Of a DNA stretch of 64,000 nt, positions 35,231 through 41,507 are shown piece by piece; position 1 is the stretch's first letter; every line of letters begins with the position of its first letter. Origin of the DNA: an uncultured Clostridia bacterium (GTDB lineage Bacteria; Bacillota; Clostridia; Lachnospirales; Lachnospiraceae). The notes below the pieces were generated by a model. That model worked only from the letters and a program-made list of their open reading frames with translations, was not told the DNA's origin and did not search any database. A program made the position numbers and the translations under genes. Where the stretch lies: the NCBI GenBank assembly GCA_937890745.1, contig CALADH010000013.1, positions 5,031-69,030 of the forward strand, written 5' to 3'.

Positions 35231-36904
35231 ATGAAAAAAATGAATCTAAAAAAACAATGTATTCTTTTTATGGCGGCGGCATTGATGTTTACAGGAATGC
35301 CATTAAGTGCAGCGGCGGCTGAAGCAAACGCAGGCAGCGCAGAGGCGATTGTCACAGAGACTGTTGCGGAAACTTCCGGGAGTGGGCAGACTGAGCCGGC
35401 AGAGGCAGTCGAGGGTGAGAAGAAAGAAGCCTATCAGATTGTATATAATCCGGGAGTACAGGTTAAAGTTCCGAAAAGTTTATTTGAAGGCTACAGGGGA
35501 AGTGTAAAAAAGGTCTATGCAGAGGGTATCGGTGAGATACCGGGAAGATTTTGGTATGATGATATGCTGATTGATATTCCTTTAGACAGAGATGTCAAGA
35601 AGGGTGTTTATCCGATTGATGTGACTTTTCAGTATGACGATGTGGCATCAGGTATTATTGAACTTGTCGTGGAAGAAGATATGAAAGGCATTCATATCCT
35701 CAATTCAGTTGTAAACTTTGACGGAACTAAAGATGCCGTTTTCCGCTTTAAAAATGGTACAGGTAAAAATAGGATTACAAAGTTAAAAGACGTATCTTTT
35801 ACGGCCAGATATTGGCATGAGGGTGATGACGACAGTAAGGTTACAGGTTTTGGGCTAGACTCTGATAGAGAAAGCTATAAAAAATATGCGACCTGTGATC
35901 TTGAAAAAGGCGAATTGAGAGTTAAGAAAGATTTTTTTAAGACACAGCTTGGTCAGGGAACATGTGGTTCTAGATTAATGCCGTGGGTATACCCTGTGTC
36001 TAATATGGAATTTGAGTTAGCCAGCGGTGAAACTGTTCGAGTATTCTATGATATTACACATGAGGCCACATTATCTAAAGATTTTAAAAATCCGGGAGAC
36101 AATCGGTGGTATTTTGTAAATCATTATAAAGATGACGGCAAGCCGGTGGAGCCTGAGGAACCGGAGAAAACCGATCCTGTTGAAGATTTTGTAAAACGCT
36201 TATATACAAATATTCTTCAGCGTGAAGCTGATGCAAGCGGACTTAAAGCTTGGACAGATGTGTTAAAGTCCGGCAAGGAACAGGGCGCCAAGGTTGCGCA
36301 GGGCTTTATTGAAAGTCCTGAATTTCAGAAAAGAAAACTTACGGACACACAATACTTGGAGATTTTATATCAGACATTTTTTGACCGTAAGGCAGATAAG
36401 GCAGGTTTAGACGCATGGTTAGATGTGCTTGACAGCGGTTTATCAAGAATGCATGTATTTAAAGGCTTTGCGGAATCTAACGAATTTACAGAGATTTGTG
36501 AGGAATATGGCATTATCCGCGGAAACGTCACACTGACAGCGCCGATGGATCAGAATGAAGGTGTGACAAAGTTTATCGTCCGCTGCTATCGCTTATGCCT
36601 TGGCCGTGACGCTGACAAGGATGGCTTAAACAGCTGGTGTACACAGATTCTGACAGGAAAGAATACGGCGAAAGAAGCTGCACACGGCTTTGTATTCTCC
36701 GATGAATTTAAAAAGAAAAACCTTTCAGATAAAGAATATGTCAAAACAATGTACCGCGTATTCATGGACAGAGAAGCAGACCCTGCAGGCTTAGATGCAT
36801 GGGTGAAAGTGCTTAAAAGCGGCAAGAGCCGTGAACATGTATTCAACGGCTTTGCGGATTCGGGCGAATTTAAAGAAATCTGCGCGGAGTATGGTATTCG
36901 TTAA
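35231..36904 (+). CDS. Secreted protein with four C-terminal DUF4214-type repeats
   Basis: AGGAGG SD and a signal peptide (LFMAAALMFTGMPLSAAAAEA). Four ~65-aa repeats of the form F/YV..xY...L.R.AD..GL..W...L.SG.....V..GF..S.EF are visible. Confidence 0.7.
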   Translation: MKKMNLKKQCILFMAAALMFTGMPLSAAAAEANAGSAEAIVTETVAETSGSGQTEPAEAVEGEKKEAYQIVYNPGVQVKVPKSLFEGYRGSVKKVYAEGIGEIPGRFWYDDMLIDIPLDRDVKKGVYPIDVTFQYDDVASGIIELVVEEDMKGIHILNSVVNFDGTKDAVFRFKNGTGKNRITKLKDVSFTARYWHEGDDDSKVTGFGLDSDRESYKKYATCDLEKGELRVKKDFFKTQLGQGTCGSRLMPWVYPVSNMEFELASGETVRVFYDITHEATLSKDFKNPGDNRWYFVNHYKDDGKPVEPEEPEKTDPVEDFVKRLYTNILQREADASGLKAWTDVLKSGKEQGAKVAQGFIESPEFQKRKLTDTQYLEILYQTFFDRKADKAGLDAWLDVLDSGLSRMHVFKGFAESNEFTEICEEYGIIRGNVTLTAPMDQNEGVTKFIVRCYRLCLGRDADKDGLNSWCTQILTGKNTAKEAAHGFVFSDEFKKKNLSDKEYVKTMYRVFMDREADPAGLDAWVKVLKSGKSREHVFNGFADSGEFKEICAEYGIR

Positions 36905-36926
36905 AATGTTAATTGGATAAAAGTTA

Positions 36927-36968
36927 AAAGACCTGCAGGCACTTCGGTTTTGTAGGTCTTTATGTTTG
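36927..36968 (+). terminator. Terminator after the DUF4214 gene, marking the left edge of the AT-rich island
   Basis: AAAGACCTGCA (36927-36937) pairs with TGTAGGTCTTT (36951-36961), with one G-U pair. TATGTTTGT follows. Confidence 0.65.
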
Positions 36969-37020
36969 TGGAAAATTTTTTGAAAATCCTATATCATGAA
37001 AAGCGTATAGCTAAAGAGAC

Positions 37021-37049
37021 TTTTCAAAGATGTGGCATTGGGGTATAAT
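37021..37049 (+). promoter_or_regulatory. Candidate promoter for the island gene pair
   Basis: TTTTCA (37021-37026), a 17-nt spacer and TATAAT (37044-37049). The -35 element is weak. Confidence 0.35.
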
Positions 37050-37093
37050 AAGCACAGAGAAACTATTATAAAAAAATAAGATGTATAGGGAGT

Positions 37094-38440
37094 GTGAGAT
37101 ATTTGCAAAAAATTATAATTAGGCATCTAGGTCCTGTAAAAACTTTGGATATGGAAATAAAAGATTTTAATATACTTATAGGAGAACAGGCAACAGGTAA
37201 AAGTACTGTTGCAAAAGCAATATATTTTTTTAGAATTATTAAAACTACATTAACAGATTATCTTTGTCAGGTATATGATAGTGCACTTTACAAAGGCAAT
37301 GATATTAGTGAGGGGTTTAATAAGGTTTTAAAGAGAGAGTTAAAGTCAATTTTTATTTCATTATTTGGACGAAGTTGGGATTTAGACCGACGTTTATATT
37401 TAAAATATGAGTACACAAATGATATTTGGATTGATGTTAACCTTAACGGAACGTCCAGGCAGTATATAAGCGTTCGTTATTCACCAAATTTGTCACGGGA
37501 AATAAAACGGTTAGAAGGTGAAGCTTTAACTTTGCATGAGCAAAAAGCAGATGCATATTTTAGTCTTGCTTATGCAAGTAAGGAACGATTGCGTAATTAT
37601 GATAATTTTAAAAATAATATAAACAGAATTTTTGATGATTACAAAGAAACATATTATATACCTGCAGGAAGAAGTATGATTACACTATTAGTTAATAATC
37701 GTTCTTTAATTGAAAGTGAAAATCTTGATTTGATAACACGGGAGTTTATGCGTATTATTGACGGTATTCATGTAGCGTTTGCAGACGGGATTAGGAATGT
37801 GCATAAACGATATCCTGATGGTGAAAGAAAATTTGATGTTAGTAAGATATCAGAGATGTTAATTTCTGATTTGAAAGGTGATTATCAGTATAATCCGGGT
37901 AAAGAATATATTATTATTCAGGATGAGGAGAATCATAACGAGAAAGTACAGGTGCCGATTAATTTTGCATCATCGGGACAGCAAGAGATTTTGTGGTTGC
38001 TGAATCAATTATATATTTTGATGTTAAAAAAAGAAAATGCGTTTGTAATTATAGAGGAGCCGGAAGCACATTTATATCCAAGTCTTCAGGATAAAGTTGT
38101 TGAATTTATTGCTTATTTTGCAAATATTAATGATAGTACTGTCATGGTGACAACGCATAGTCCTTACATTTTAACATCAGTAAATGCGTTATATTGTGCA
38201 GGAAAAGTGATTAGAGATTTTCCAAATCTGACTAAAAAAGTACATGATATTGTGGGAAATGGTTGCGAAATTATCCCGGAAAAAATTACAGCATTAAAAC
38301 TTAATAAAGATACAAGCGTACAGGAATTAATAGATAAAGAATTCGAAGAAATAAATACAGAGATGATTGATGAAATTTCAGACAAAATCAATGAAAAGTA
38401 TACAGAATTGTTTTATTTGTTATCCGAAAGCGAAGCGTGA
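37094..38440 (+). CDS. ABC/SMC-type (AAA_15/AAA_21-like) ATPase, candidate defence-system ATPase
   Basis: 448-aa ORF. Motifs seen: Walker A GEQATGKST (aa 30-38), signature-like SSGQQ (293-297), Walker B FVIIEEPE (317-324) and H-loop TTHSP (353-357). About 250 aa are inserted between Walker A and the signature motif. The start may instead be the TTG at 37103, 10 nt after GGGAG. The gene is AT-rich. Confidence 0.75.
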   Translation: MRYLQKIIIRHLGPVKTLDMEIKDFNILIGEQATGKSTVAKAIYFFRIIKTTLTDYLCQVYDSALYKGNDISEGFNKVLKRELKSIFISLFGRSWDLDRRLYLKYEYTNDIWIDVNLNGTSRQYISVRYSPNLSREIKRLEGEALTLHEQKADAYFSLAYASKERLRNYDNFKNNINRIFDDYKETYYIPAGRSMITLLVNNRSLIESENLDLITREFMRIIDGIHVAFADGIRNVHKRYPDGERKFDVSKISEMLISDLKGDYQYNPGKEYIIIQDEENHNEKVQVPINFASSGQQEILWLLNQLYILMLKKENAFVIIEEPEAHLYPSLQDKVVEFIAYFANINDSTVMVTTHSPYILTSVNALYCAGKVIRDFPNLTKKVHDIVGNGCEIIPEKITALKLNKDTSVQELIDKEFEEINTEMIDEISDKINEKYTELFYLLSESEA

Positions 38441-38451
38441 GAGGTGAGGGG

Positions 38452-39075
38452 ATGAGTAAAAAAGAAAAGCTCAAAAACAGAAATTTTACTCAGACAGGCG
38501 ATTTGGCATTGGGAAAATATAATGAATTATTCGAGTGCCTTAATAAAGGAGAGAAAAGAAATCTTAAAGATAGGAAATCTGATAAAAATTCATTTATGCC
38601 TATAGAGGTAGTAGATGAAGGCGTGTTTTTAACAGAACCTGATGGAAGATTAATTCCTGATACTGTCAGTCAGCGTAAATGCGATTTTTTGTTATACTGT
38701 AAAGATAAGCCGCAGATATGTTTCGTTGAACTCAAGGGAGAGAACATTTCAATCAAAAATAGTGATAATCCATACGACCAAATTAGTGCTACGATAGATT
38801 TTTTGAAAAGATATAATGAGTTAAAAGTTTTAGCAAATCCAACGATTGAAAAACATGCTTTTATTGTATCACCGGGGAGGCAGAAATTTCCAAAAGGTAT
38901 AGAGTCTAAAGAGAGATTTCTTTGGCGGAAGTTGCTTCAAGAAGGTTCTGAAAAAAAGAAAATGGAAGATATTGTGCATCATGTAAAAGTGACGAAATCG
39001 GATAGATACAGCAATAATGGGCAGATTATTTGTTCACCAAAAGCACCTGTAAAAATTCCTTTTATGAATGATTAG
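38452..39075 (+). CDS. PD-(D/E)xK nuclease-like protein, partner of the ATPase
   Basis: The ATG at 38452 follows GAGGTGAGGGG, which spans the ATPase stop codon; the ORF track offers a GTG at 38437 that would overlap the ATPase gene by 4 nt. 207 aa. The motif KCDFLLYCKDKPQICFVELKG gives D78 ... E93-x-K95, the canonical restriction-endonuclease-fold signature. Confidence 0.65.
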   Translation: MSKKEKLKNRNFTQTGDLALGKYNELFECLNKGEKRNLKDRKSDKNSFMPIEVVDEGVFLTEPDGRLIPDTVSQRKCDFLLYCKDKPQICFVELKGENISIKNSDNPYDQISATIDFLKRYNELKVLANPTIEKHAFIVSPGRQKFPKGIESKERFLWRKLLQEGSEKKKMEDIVHHVKVTKSDRYSNNGQIICSPKAPVKIPFMND

Positions 39076-39089
39076 AAGAAAAAATAACT

Positions 39090-41507
39090 ATGATAAAAAC
39101 TAACTACAAAATCTCTGTCCGCCGCCTTGCGGAGTTTATTTTGCAGTCAGGCGATATTGACCGGACGGTCGGCGCTCTAAAAGACGCGGAGGCCATGCAG
39201 GAAGGACAAAAAATCCATAAGAAGCTGCAGAAGCTGGCAGGACCTGAGTACAGAGCCGAGGTGACACTAAAGACAGAATATGATGCCGGCGATGACATGG
39301 TGATTGTCCTTGAGGGGCGGGCTGACGGTATTATTGAGGAATACCGGCTCGGCGGTCTTGAGGACGGAGGTGAAGCCGGAATGCAGCTTTTCCATACGGT
39401 TGATGAAATCAAAGGTACTTATGCAGATGTAAGCCGACTTGAGGCGCCGCTGCCGGAACATATAGGGCAGGCGCTTTGCTATGCCTATATTTATGCACTT
39501 CAAAATCAGTTGGATGTGATGGAAGTTCAGGTAACTTATGTGAATATTGAAACAGAAAAGGTAAAGCAATTTAAGGAGACAAAAACCTTTGAGGAATTAA
39601 AGATTTGGTTTGAAGAACTTATGGCAGAATATGCCAAGTGGCTGAAGTGGCAGCGTCAGTGGCGGAAAAAGCGCAATGACAGTGCGGCAAGACTCTCGTT
39701 TCCGTTTGAGTACAGACCGGGGCAGAAGAAGATGGTTTCCGGCGTTTATCGGACAATTTTGCAGAAGAAACGGCTGTTTATGGAAGCGCCCACAGGAACA
39801 GGCAAGACGATATCCACAGTTTTTCCGTCGGTGAAAGCGATGGGCGAGGGGCAGGCAGAAAAGATTTTTTATCTGACGGCAAAGACAATCACCCGGACGG
39901 TTGCCGAGGAAGCTTATGATTTGCTGCGCAAAAACGGGCTTTTATTTAAGGCGGTAACGCTGACGGCAAAGGATAAGATCTGTATTTTTGATGAGGCAAA
40001 GTGTAATCCCGAAGACTGTCCGAGAGCGAAAGGGCATTTCGACAGAGTCAATGACGCGGTGTTTGATATGGTCACAAATGAGACGGCGCTGACAAAAGAT
40101 GTCATTGAAGTTTATGCTGAAAAATATAATGTTTGTCCTTTTGAAATGCAGCTTGATGCGGCGCTTTGGATGGACGGCATTATCTGTGATTATAATTATG
40201 TGTTTGATCCTCAGGTTTACTTAAAGCGATTTTTTGATAATGTGAAAGAAAACTATATTTTTCTCATTGATGAGGCGCATAATCTTGTGGACAGGGCGCG
40301 GGAAATGTACAGCGCACCTCTTTATCTGGCAGATTTTGAAGCGGTCAGGGCAGCAGTGATGCCTTATGAGCGCCGTCTTGCCGGAAAAATTGGCATATGC
40401 ATTAAGTGTATGAGAGAGCTTTATGACGAGTGTGAGGAATGTATGCAGCTTGAAAGCGCCGGAGGGCTGTCTGTATTTTTAATGCGGATGATTTCTGATA
40501 TAGAAAAGTTTTTAAAAAGCCGGGCTCCGGCACCTGTGAAAGTGAAAGAAAAGGTACTTGAGCTTTATCTTAATGCACGGTGGTTTGTCAATGTGTACGA
40601 TAATATGGACAGCCGTTATATTATCTACGACGAGCGGCAGGGCGAAAAAAAGTTTATGATAAAGCTTTTTTGTGTTGATCCGTCGGGAGATTTGGGGATG
40701 TGTCTTGAAAAGGGACGTTCGGCAGTCTTTTTTTCGGCGACGCTTTTGCCAATCCAATATTATAAGTCGCTTTTGAGTGTGACGCCGAAAGAGGATTATG
40801 ATTTGTATGCCGTATCGCCCTTTGATGTGAGCAACCGCATGATTTTGACGGCGGGGGATGTGAGCAGCAGATATACGCGGCGAAACAGAGAAGAATATGA
40901 GCGGATTGCCGAGTATATTTTAAAAACAGTACGCGGTAAAAACGGCAATTATATGGTTTTTTTTCCGTCTTACGCATTTATGGAGGCTGTCTATGAAGTG
41001 ATTGCAGAAAAGGAGCTTTCAAAGGCAGGCAACGGACTGACAATCATTGTGCAGGAGAGCGCCATGACTGAATCGGCAAGAGAAGCGTTTTTGGAAAATT
41101 TTAAATCTGACATTATGTCAACTGTTGTCGGCTTTTGCGTGCTCGGCGGTATATTTTCGGAGGGCATTGATTTAAAGGAGGACAGGCTTATTGGTGTCCT
41201 TGTTGTCGGTACAGGACTGCCGCAGACCGGCGGTGAGCGTGAGCTTTTAAAAAAATATTTTGATGAAAAAGAGGGCAGCGGTTTTGATTTTGCTTACCTT
41301 TATCCGGGAATGAATAAGGTTTTGCAGGCGGCGGGGCGCGTCATACGGACGGAAAAGGATAAGGGGATTATTGTACTTTTGGACGAGCGGTTTAATTACC
41401 GAATGTACAGCAGCCTTTTTCCGAGAGAATGGTTTCCTTATGAGCGGGCGTCCATCGGCAATATCGAAGAAAAAATAAATACGTTTTGGGAAAAAGCCGG
41501 AATATAG
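39090..41507 (+). CDS. DinG/XPD (Rad3)-family Fe-S DNA helicase fused to an N-terminal Cas4-like PD-(D/E)xK nuclease domain
   Basis: 805 aa. The N-terminal domain contains SVRRLAEFILQSGDID ... VDEIKG. Helicase motifs include Walker A APTGTGKT and the DEAH box LIDEAHNL. A four-Cys cluster (ICIF, KCNPEDCP, VCPFE) lies between helicase motifs I and II. The C-terminal region contains QAAGRVIRTEKDKG. Confidence 0.85.
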   Translation: MIKTNYKISVRRLAEFILQSGDIDRTVGALKDAEAMQEGQKIHKKLQKLAGPEYRAEVTLKTEYDAGDDMVIVLEGRADGIIEEYRLGGLEDGGEAGMQLFHTVDEIKGTYADVSRLEAPLPEHIGQALCYAYIYALQNQLDVMEVQVTYVNIETEKVKQFKETKTFEELKIWFEELMAEYAKWLKWQRQWRKKRNDSAARLSFPFEYRPGQKKMVSGVYRTILQKKRLFMEAPTGTGKTISTVFPSVKAMGEGQAEKIFYLTAKTITRTVAEEAYDLLRKNGLLFKAVTLTAKDKICIFDEAKCNPEDCPRAKGHFDRVNDAVFDMVTNETALTKDVIEVYAEKYNVCPFEMQLDAALWMDGIICDYNYVFDPQVYLKRFFDNVKENYIFLIDEAHNLVDRAREMYSAPLYLADFEAVRAAVMPYERRLAGKIGICIKCMRELYDECEECMQLESAGGLSVFLMRMISDIEKFLKSRAPAPVKVKEKVLELYLNARWFVNVYDNMDSRYIIYDERQGEKKFMIKLFCVDPSGDLGMCLEKGRSAVFFSATLLPIQYYKSLLSVTPKEDYDLYAVSPFDVSNRMILTAGDVSSRYTRRNREEYERIAEYILKTVRGKNGNYMVFFPSYAFMEAVYEVIAEKELSKAGNGLTIIVQESAMTESAREAFLENFKSDIMSTVVGFCVLGGIFSEGIDLKEDRLIGVLVVGTGLPQTGGERELLKKYFDEKEGSGFDFAYLYPGMNKVLQAAGRVIRTEKDKGIIVLLDERFNYRMYSSLFPREWFPYERASIGNIEEKINTFWEKAGI

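Follow-up and report, generated by a model that had tools for sequence, protein, structure and literature searches.

Within a 64,000-nucleotide stretch of DNA from an uncultured Lachnospiraceae bacterium (contig CALADH010000013.1; hereafter, the window), we studied two adjacent genes, the first encoding an ATP-binding cassette (ABC)-type ATPase and the second a protein of 207 amino acids (hereafter, the partner). We think it likely that the partner is the nuclease effector of a two-gene, horizontally acquired cassette, in which an ABC ATPase is combined with a nuclease of the PD-(D/E)xK type, and that the cassette most probably serves in defense against phages or other mobile elements. Its conserved residues and predicted structure indicate that the partner is very probably a small metal-dependent nuclease working with the upstream ATPase.

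The open reading frame (ORF) of the partner begins with the ATG at 38452 and ends with the stop codon at 39073–39075; a GAGG Shine-Dalgarno sequence (38441–38444) is located 7 nucleotides 5′ of the ATG. This start codon is supported by the homologs, which share the N-terminal M-S/G-K-K sequence and start at the same point. An earlier reading of this DNA, made from the letters only (the sequence-only reading), had drawn attention to the peptide KCDFLLYCKDKPQICFVELKG, in which it saw a PD-(D/E)xK arrangement with Asp78 (D78) followed 15 residues later by the Glu93 (E93) and Lys95 (K95) of an E-x-K element. The peptide is present as written, and codon arithmetic places D78 at 38683–38685, E93 at 38728–38730 and K95 at 38734–38736, in exact agreement with the residues and the span (38683–38736) named there. 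In the partner, the canonical ‘PD’ is replaced by ‘CD’ (C77-D78). A motif as short as D...ExK proves little and is weak evidence by itself. A loose regular expression (Asp-hydrophobic ... two hydrophobics-[DE]-hydrophobic-Lys) gave 1 match in the 28,288 amino acids of the window’s six-frame ORFs of at least 100 codons.

Conservation was assessed across the family. Homologs with 45–100% identity to the window protein formed 100 clusters at 90% identity, and HMMER, run in full over 1.84 billion representatives, returned 127 proteins, extending down to relatives of ~150–180 amino acids; the whole family amounts to ~190 clusters at 90% identity, distributed among Bacillota, Campylobacterota and Bacteroidota. 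The listed homologs have no Pfam domain on record, and the family is without a Pfam, NCBIfam or PHROG model. The window’s own version of the partner is common in human-gut metagenomes, where it was found on 167 contigs. Two alignments were used, one of 58 sequences that are 20–65% identical to the query and the other of 187 family sequences, from which column percentages were calculated. In the 58-sequence alignment, D78, E93 and K95 were the only invariant columns, and D64, L94, G96, Q110, T114, P147, L157 and L161 were near-invariant. The four most conserved columns among the 187 sequences were K95 (99.5%), Q110 (99.5%), E93 (98.9%) and D78 (98.4%). A small number of sequences are without the motif, and these resemble truncated, chimeric or frame-shifted metagenome calls. 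Judged by these columns, the conservation of D78, E93 and K95 is far beyond chance, and the three residues singled out by the sequence-only reading are among the most conserved positions of the family.

We then compared these positions with a structural model of the window protein, predicted by AlphaFold2 from a 42-sequence alignment (predicted local distance difference test score (pLDDT), 84.7; predicted template modeling score (pTM), 0.84). In this model, the N-terminal part consists of helix 21–26 and strands 28–30, 35–39, 48–53 and 58–61; it is followed by strands 79–83 and 88–93, helices 107–120 and 125–128, strand 133–140 and helix 150–161, and then by the C-terminal helix 171–174 and strands 175–180, 192–195 and 200–202. 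Strands 58–61, 79–83 and 88–93, helix 107–120 and strand 133–140 follow each other in the beta-beta-beta-alpha-beta order of PD-(D/E)xK enzymes. D78 precedes strand 79–83 and E93 and K95 stand at the end of strand 88–93, as expected of a PD-(D/E)xK arrangement, in which the two elements are 10–30 residues apart (here, 15); with a 4-residue turn (84–87) between the two strands, D78 is predicted to lie opposite E93 across the hairpin. Q110 falls in helix 107–120, after the ExK strand and before strand 133–140. In some PD-(D/E)xK families, the helix that follows the ExK strand contains a conserved Gln or Glu, and by analogy with them Q110 is probably an active-site Gln. A second, independent AlphaFold model, that of a 151-amino-acid relative from Chryseobacterium (P0232; pLDDT 85.4, pTM 0.84), contains helix 3–11, a beta meander, strand 57–62 after D56, strand 70–76 ending in E76 and followed by K78, helix 82–100 (with Q88), strand 107–113 and helix 121–134. 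It thus adds an N-terminal helix and displays the full alpha-beta-beta-beta-alpha-beta-alpha pattern.

The central proposal of the sequence-only reading is thereby supported, and none of the three outcomes that it had named as refuting was encountered. Two of its other suggestions fared less well. It had proposed that the upstream stretch IEVVDEG could supply an acidic residue from helix 1. This segment is predicted to be a strand, not a helix, and its E52, D55 and E56 are not conserved among the 187 sequences; from the alignment, D64 is a better candidate for an extra acidic residue. It had also described the ~110 residues after the motif as lysine-rich and similar to nothing that it recognized. 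For residues ~96–165, this did not hold: with the Q110 helix, strand 133–140 and helix 150–161, they form a conserved core shared with the ~150-amino-acid relatives. Residues ~166–207, by contrast, are indeed clade-specific. They constitute a conserved C-terminal extension of ~40 amino acids in the long (~207 amino acids) clade, which also adds an N-terminal tail, and the extension is possibly an ATPase-docking or regulatory element. The long clade further has the extra conserved residues C90 (38719–38721), H176 (38977–38979) and C194 (39031–39033), beside the family-wide C77, whereas the ~150-amino-acid relatives lack both this Cys/His set and the HYVKVT..RYS..IICSP..P..IPF segment. Together, the Cys/His residues and the C-terminal segment may form a metal site of structural importance or an element that docks onto the ATPase.

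Database comparisons returned sub-threshold matches that point in the same direction. Among the 58 family members, sub-threshold Pfam matches were to HSDR_N_2 in 10 of 58 (best E-value, 2.8e-5), SduA_C in 4, HSDR_N in 2 and NERD in 2, with Tox-REase-7, the cap-snatching endonuclease family and DUF2726 once each; the remaining single matches were unrelated noise. We take all seven of these to be families of the PD-(D/E)xK clan (Pfam clan CL0236). In Foldseek searches, of which the sub-threshold matches are taken by the identities of the top ones as weak evidence only, the best match of the window model in the PDB was the restriction enzyme EcoO109I (E-value, 0.26), with MunI and HindIII lower down, and the matches among viral models (BFVD) included RecU, VRR-NUC, Cas4 and “PD-(D/E)XK nuclease” proteins. 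With the P0232 model, chains of the Mus81 ERCC4 nuclease made up 14 of the top 17 matches, including the first 14 (E-values, 0.0096–0.1; probability at most 0.72), followed by Card1 and Can2. Mus81/XPF (ERCC4) and HSDR_N_2 share with the partner family a D...E-x-K hairpin followed by a helix, Mus81 being the best structural match (of the short relative) and HSDR_N_2 the best profile match, both sub-threshold and the former at a TM-score of ~0.3; the partner family differs from them in having ‘CD’ in place of ‘PD/GD’, the helix Gln and an N-terminal beta-rich region. Each of these links falls below significance, yet all are consistent with a PD-(D/E)xK nuclease. We hold the assignment of the partner to the PD-(D/E)xK fold to be very probable, mainly in view of which residues are conserved and of where the predicted secondary-structure elements lie.

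The upstream gene encodes an ATPase that matches the Pfam families AAA_15 (1.1e-24; 88.2 bits against a cut-off of 32.1) and AAA_21 (1.2e-18; 68.7 bits against a cut-off of 27). Its Walker A motif is G30-x4-GKS (residues 30–37), its Walker B motif FVIIEE (317–322) and its H-loop TTHS (353–356), and a signature-like SSGQQ is read from the translation at 293–297. With all four motif types present in the translation, the ATPase of the window is intact. Among PADLOC models, its top match was AriA (1.5e-27), followed by PD-T4-4_A (4.6e-22) and PDC-M29A (7.9e-21), and NsnB, GajA and PtuA were matched as well. The match to PD-T4-4_A is collinear, with residues 6–442 of the ATPase aligned to positions 2–457 of the 460 in the model. 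The nearest solved relatives, PtuA and AriA, are weakly similar. The start of the ATPase is ambiguous: the GTG at 37094 would give 448 amino acids and the TTG at 37103 would give 445; the latter was picked by the gene calls of public assemblies, and AGGGAG (37087–37092) is better spaced for it.

The two genes form a stable pair across genomes. Among the related loci that could be assessed, which represent three phyla, the ATPase gene lies directly 5′ of the partner gene in 28 of 28. These comprise 23 of 23 loci of Lachnospiraceae, Eubacterium, Tissierellia and similar bacteria, in which the ATPases are 53–81% and the partners 41–71% identical, and the pairing also extends to Campylobacter, to Chryseobacterium and to a locus with type I restriction–modification (RM) M and S genes and a transposase, in which the ATPases are 25–42% identical. 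Comparison of distant loci shows a strict pairing, in which the two genes have diverged in parallel and co-evolve. The ORFs overlap by 4–17 nucleotides in homologous loci; in the window, the 11-nucleotide gap with its Shine-Dalgarno sequence suggests coupled expression of the ATPase and the partner.

The pair is surrounded by different, unrelated genes at each locus. The GC content of the ~2-kb pair (1,982 bp) in the window is 29–35% as compared with 40–49% in the flanks, or 30–34% as compared with 42–49% when more narrowly stated, and the drop, from ~41–44%, begins at the terminator-like hairpin at 36927–36961. Folding of the RNA from 36915 to 36975 gave −17.4 kcal/mol, with a z of −3.32; among 200 shuffled sequences, 0 folded as well. 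At its 3′ end, the cassette stops 14 nucleotides before a gene for a DinG/XPD-like helicase. Elsewhere, relatives of the cassette are found near a phage-type integrase (L004:1-662) and near a DDE transposase and type I RM S and M genes (L028:2497-6292 and L029). Such neighbors fit carriage on mobile or defense-associated DNA in other genomes. Truncated copies of the pair are present in L023:4974-6180, where ATPase residues 122–448 and only residues 146–206 of the partner remain, and in L012; they suggest that the cassette is decaying in certain genomes or else that the assemblies are broken there. A search for an empty insertion site in a close relative found none: some helicase homologs came from the same species (100% identity), and the others were no more than 52% identical and without synteny. 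As traced from these comparisons, the cassette behaves as an accessory, horizontally moving element, indicative of horizontal acquisition.

Several results weigh against a defense cassette with a PD-(D/E)xK effector. On the side of the fold, an above-threshold match to a curated family or a solved structure is absent. The window protein matched HSDR_N_2 alone in Pfam (E-value, 0.021) at 15.4 bits, below the cut-off of 25. Foldseek searches with both models against the PDB, and with the window model against BFVD, gave nothing at E ≤ 1e-3 and TM-scores of 0.2–0.3, and sequence-profile searches of the PDB with two family alignments gave nothing at E ≤ 10. In addition, the spatial clustering of D78, E93 and K95 that had been proposed is read from the register of the predicted hairpin, as given by DSSP strings, and not from distances. 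On the side of defense, the cassette of the window sits between housekeeping genes and not in a defense island, and tblastn searches of plasmid and phage collections did not find it. The PD-T4-4_B models (only the models were compared) matched none of the 58 partner members at E ≤ 1. The window partner matched 0 PADLOC families at E ≤ 1 and, therefore, did not match PDC-M29B, the partner model of the candidate system PDC-M29; PDC-M29 and the partner family are, by sequence, computational candidates for defense only.

If the partner is the nuclease of an ATPase-controlled defense cassette, it might operate as follows. The two genes, in the tandem arrangement observed, would be transcribed from a promoter of their own and translated in a coupled manner. 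On the pattern of PD-T4-4, PARIS, Septu and Gabija, the ATPase would oligomerize and hold or control the nuclease in a higher-order complex, until a phage-derived cue shifts the state of the ATPase and licenses or releases the nuclease. In the active site, as expected from the chemistry of the superfamily, D78 and E93 together with Q110, and possibly D64, would bind Mg2+, and K95 would position or activate the attacking water for cleavage of a phosphodiester bond. The substrate is more likely to be DNA, because the computed isoelectric point of the partner is basic (9.2, as against 5.4 for the acidic ATPase) and the fold is of the restriction type; a less likely substrate, for which PARIS, PrrC and OLD offer parallels, is RNA or tRNA.

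The last possibility leads to an alternative in which the fold and the ATPase control are the same, but the small nuclease acts as an RNase or tRNase: the ATPase scaffold would sense a phage protein and release the nuclease, which would cut host tRNA or mRNA, resulting in abortive infection as in PARIS. We regard this as unlikely. It has in its favor that AriA, a component of PARIS, is the top PADLOC match of the ATPase and, with PtuA, one of its nearest solved structures; that tRNA is targeted by several ABC-ATPase defense nucleases, including PrrC and RloC of this ATPase class and OLD according to a tRNase preprint; that PD-(D/E)xK enzymes can cleave RNA (10.1101/2025.07.10.664194); and that one family member weakly matches the cap-snatching endonuclease family. 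However, the enzymes that recur among the weak matches of the family act on DNA (the N-terminus of HsdR, Shedu, NERD, Mus81 and restriction enzymes of type II), and no RNA-binding domain was detected. A bolder version, which we find distinctly unlikely, would make the family an undescribed PD-(D/E)xK branch, characterized by its CD...ExKG...Q tetrad, its beta-rich N-terminal module and, in gut Lachnospiraceae, the conserved C-terminal extension, whose members would be stored on the ATPase scaffold, released upon phage sensing and cut tRNA or RNA in place of DNA. If true, it would mean that a PARIS-like abortive mechanism is carried out by a restriction-fold enzyme, which, as far as is known, would be new for such a combination of fold and ATPase.

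It is improbable, in our view, that the pair is not immune in function and instead assists DNA repair or recombination, or acts as a selfish addiction module of the toxin–antitoxin type that stabilizes the DNA around it. The genomic setting in the window would suit such a role, as the neighbors are housekeeping genes, the cassette lies 14 nucleotides upstream of a helicase gene whose product has a nuclease domain of its own, other defense genes are not found nearby, and the Pfam label of AAA_21 is ‘putative AbiEii toxin’. Against it, the helicase is unlinked in 29 other cassette loci, and ~50 helicase orthologs occur without the cassette; the patchy spread over three phyla, the low GC content, the varying neighbors and the loci with type I RM genes plus a transposase or with a phage-type integrase also fit an accessory pair of defense genes. 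That the partner is not a nuclease at all, but a non-catalytic adaptor with structural or ligand-binding D/E/K residues or a Toprim-type protein (like AriB, AbiLii/RloB or DUF4435) in which E93 would be the Toprim Glu, is highly improbable: the fold has no significant structural or profile match and many ABC-ATPase partners are Toprim proteins, but a conserved downstream DxD is missing (the residues conserved there being Q110, T114, P147, L157 and L161), none of the 58 members matches Toprim, RloB, DUF4435, AriB or AbiLii in Pfam or PADLOC, and a near-invariant D...ExK...Q at canonical positions is hard to explain without catalysis. The Toprim identity itself was rejected on the missing DxD and the lack of profile matches.

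Coordinates of the features of the cassette are collected in the table.

Table. Features of the proposed ATPase–nuclease cassette in the window
Feature	Position	Strand	Basis
Terminator-like hairpin and U-rich tail that close the DUF4214 gene upstream; left boundary of the cassette with low GC content	36927..36961	+	RNA fold
Promoter-like site, TTTTCA-17-TATAAT, 5′ of the ATPase gene	37021..37049	+	Consensus scan, 10/12
ABC-type ATPase (AAA_15/AAA_21), proposed sensor/regulator subunit	37094..38440	+	Pfam, PADLOC, motifs
Shine-Dalgarno region (GAGGTGAGGGG)	38441..38451	+	11-nucleotide gap from the ATPase stop to the partner ATG; read from the sequence
207-amino-acid partner protein, predicted PD-(D/E)xK-fold nuclease effector	38452..39075	+	ORF, family, AlphaFold model
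D64, acidic, in the loop after strand 58–61; candidate extra metal ligand or structural turn residue	38641..38643	+	93.6% conserved
Proposed catalytic hairpin, C77-D78 before strand 79–83 and E93-L-K95-G96 at the end of strand 88–93	38683..38736	+	Conservation and AlphaFold strands
Q110, fourth near-invariant residue, probable active-site Gln	38779..38781	+	99.5% conserved; helix 107–120
C-terminal extension, residues ~166–207 (HYVKVT..RYS..IICSP..P..IPF), long clade only	38947..39072	+	Family alignments

The promoter-like site was found by pattern match only and is a putative cassette promoter, its function being a matter of inference. Upstream of the cassette, the gene at 35231–36904 (+) encodes a signal-peptide protein with four DUF4214 repeats (6.5e-64). 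This protein is 87–100% identical among contigs in which the ATPase, nuclease and helicase genes are 99.5–100% identical, and the DUF4214 surface protein seems to diversify more rapidly than the products of its neighbors.

Downstream, the helicase gene (39090–41507, +) encodes a protein whose N-terminal ~135 residues bear RecB/Cas4-like nuclease motifs (G39..H43, G76-R-A-D79-G, D105-E106-I-K108 and Q127..Y131), at least 90% conserved in 32 homologs; Pfam gave no assignment for this N-terminal region. A full-length close homolog has been solved (9kqh_A, ‘DNA 5′-3′ helicase’; E-value, 7.8e-156). We considered the helicase as a third component of the cassette and rejected it, since it is absent from 29 of 29 other cassette loci and its ~50 orthologs, which are 38–52% identical, have no cassette within 5 kb. 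A relationship between the partner and the RecB-like N-terminal domain was rejected as well, hhalign of the two family alignments giving a probability of 0.2. From these comparisons, the partner and the helicase seem to be two unrelated PD-(D/E)xK-type proteins that stand side by side without a functional link.

Among the known systems closest to the cassette is PD-T4-4 of E. coli ECOR58, an ‘ATPase, nuclease’ pair that has been validated by experiment and spans 1,973 bp (Vassallo et al. 2022; PMC9519451, Tables S1 and S2). PD-T4-4 has been classed as a PD-(D/E)XK protein with a P-loop NTPase and assembles into higher-order complexes (bioRxiv 10.1101/2025.07.10.664194), and it is active against T4 (bioRxiv 10.1101/2025.07.10.664194; PMC10952713). 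Both systems have two genes and almost the same length (1,973 bp as against 1,982 bp in the window), and the window ATPase is collinear with the PD-T4-4_A model. They differ in that PD-T4-4 occurs in Proteobacteria on an element resembling integrative and conjugative elements (ICE-like), whereas the cassette of the window is in Bacillota.

PDC-M29 is a PADLOC candidate that emerged from “guilt by embedding” (CAS_00123, FAM_00005>>FAM_02872, 110 instances; Payne et al. 2024, bioRxiv 10.1101/2024.01.29.577857); the name ‘PDC-M29’ was not found in the paper texts searched. It has the same order of genes, an ABC ATPase followed by a small partner, and its PDC-M29A model is matched by the window ATPase. 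The PDC-M29B model was matched across the D...ExK core by 42 of 58 partner relatives (best E-value, 2.6e-9), while a few matched PDC-M47B, and the position of a short relative beside type I RM genes is in line with the ‘embedded’ route of discovery. PADLOC would not call the locus of the window, because the partner there does not match PDC-M29B, and the long clade differs by its N-terminal tail and the conserved 40-amino-acid C-terminal extension. On these profile comparisons, the window partner is best described as a divergent sister of PDC-M29B and not as a member of that family as modeled.

HEC-02, a pair of an ABC ATPase and a NERD protein, is a validated defense system (bioRxiv 10.1101/2024.01.29.577857). 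It is similar to the cassette in that an ABC ATPase is combined with a small nuclease of the PD-(D/E)xK superfamily, the HEC-02 nuclease having a (D/E/Q)xK motif. The nuclease families are different, however: NERD was matched weakly by 2 of 58 partner members and HEC-02B by 1 of 58 (E-value, 0.0041). PARIS (AriA/AriB), Septu (PtuA/PtuB), Gabija (GajA/GajB) and AbiL have ATPases of the same AAA_15/AAA_21 class and follow the same logic, in which the ATPase controls a nuclease, but their nucleases are of the Toprim (AriB, GajA and AbiLii/RloB) or HNH (PtuB) type and not PD-(D/E)xK as here.

The assignment of a catalytic D-ExK-Q set and of an obligate ABC-ATPase partner turns a family of hypothetical proteins into testable candidate defense nucleases, and it shows that the Lachnospiraceae clade escapes the PADLOC models now in use (PDC-M29B). 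The practical use lies in annotation and in a candidate for testing in gut Clostridia, and it will hardly surprise the specialist. PD-T4-4 and HEC-02 already provide established examples of a PD-(D/E)xK nuclease under the control of an ATPase, so that no new principle is involved; the locus in the window is an unannotated, divergent member of the ABC ATPase plus PD-(D/E)xK defense pairs.

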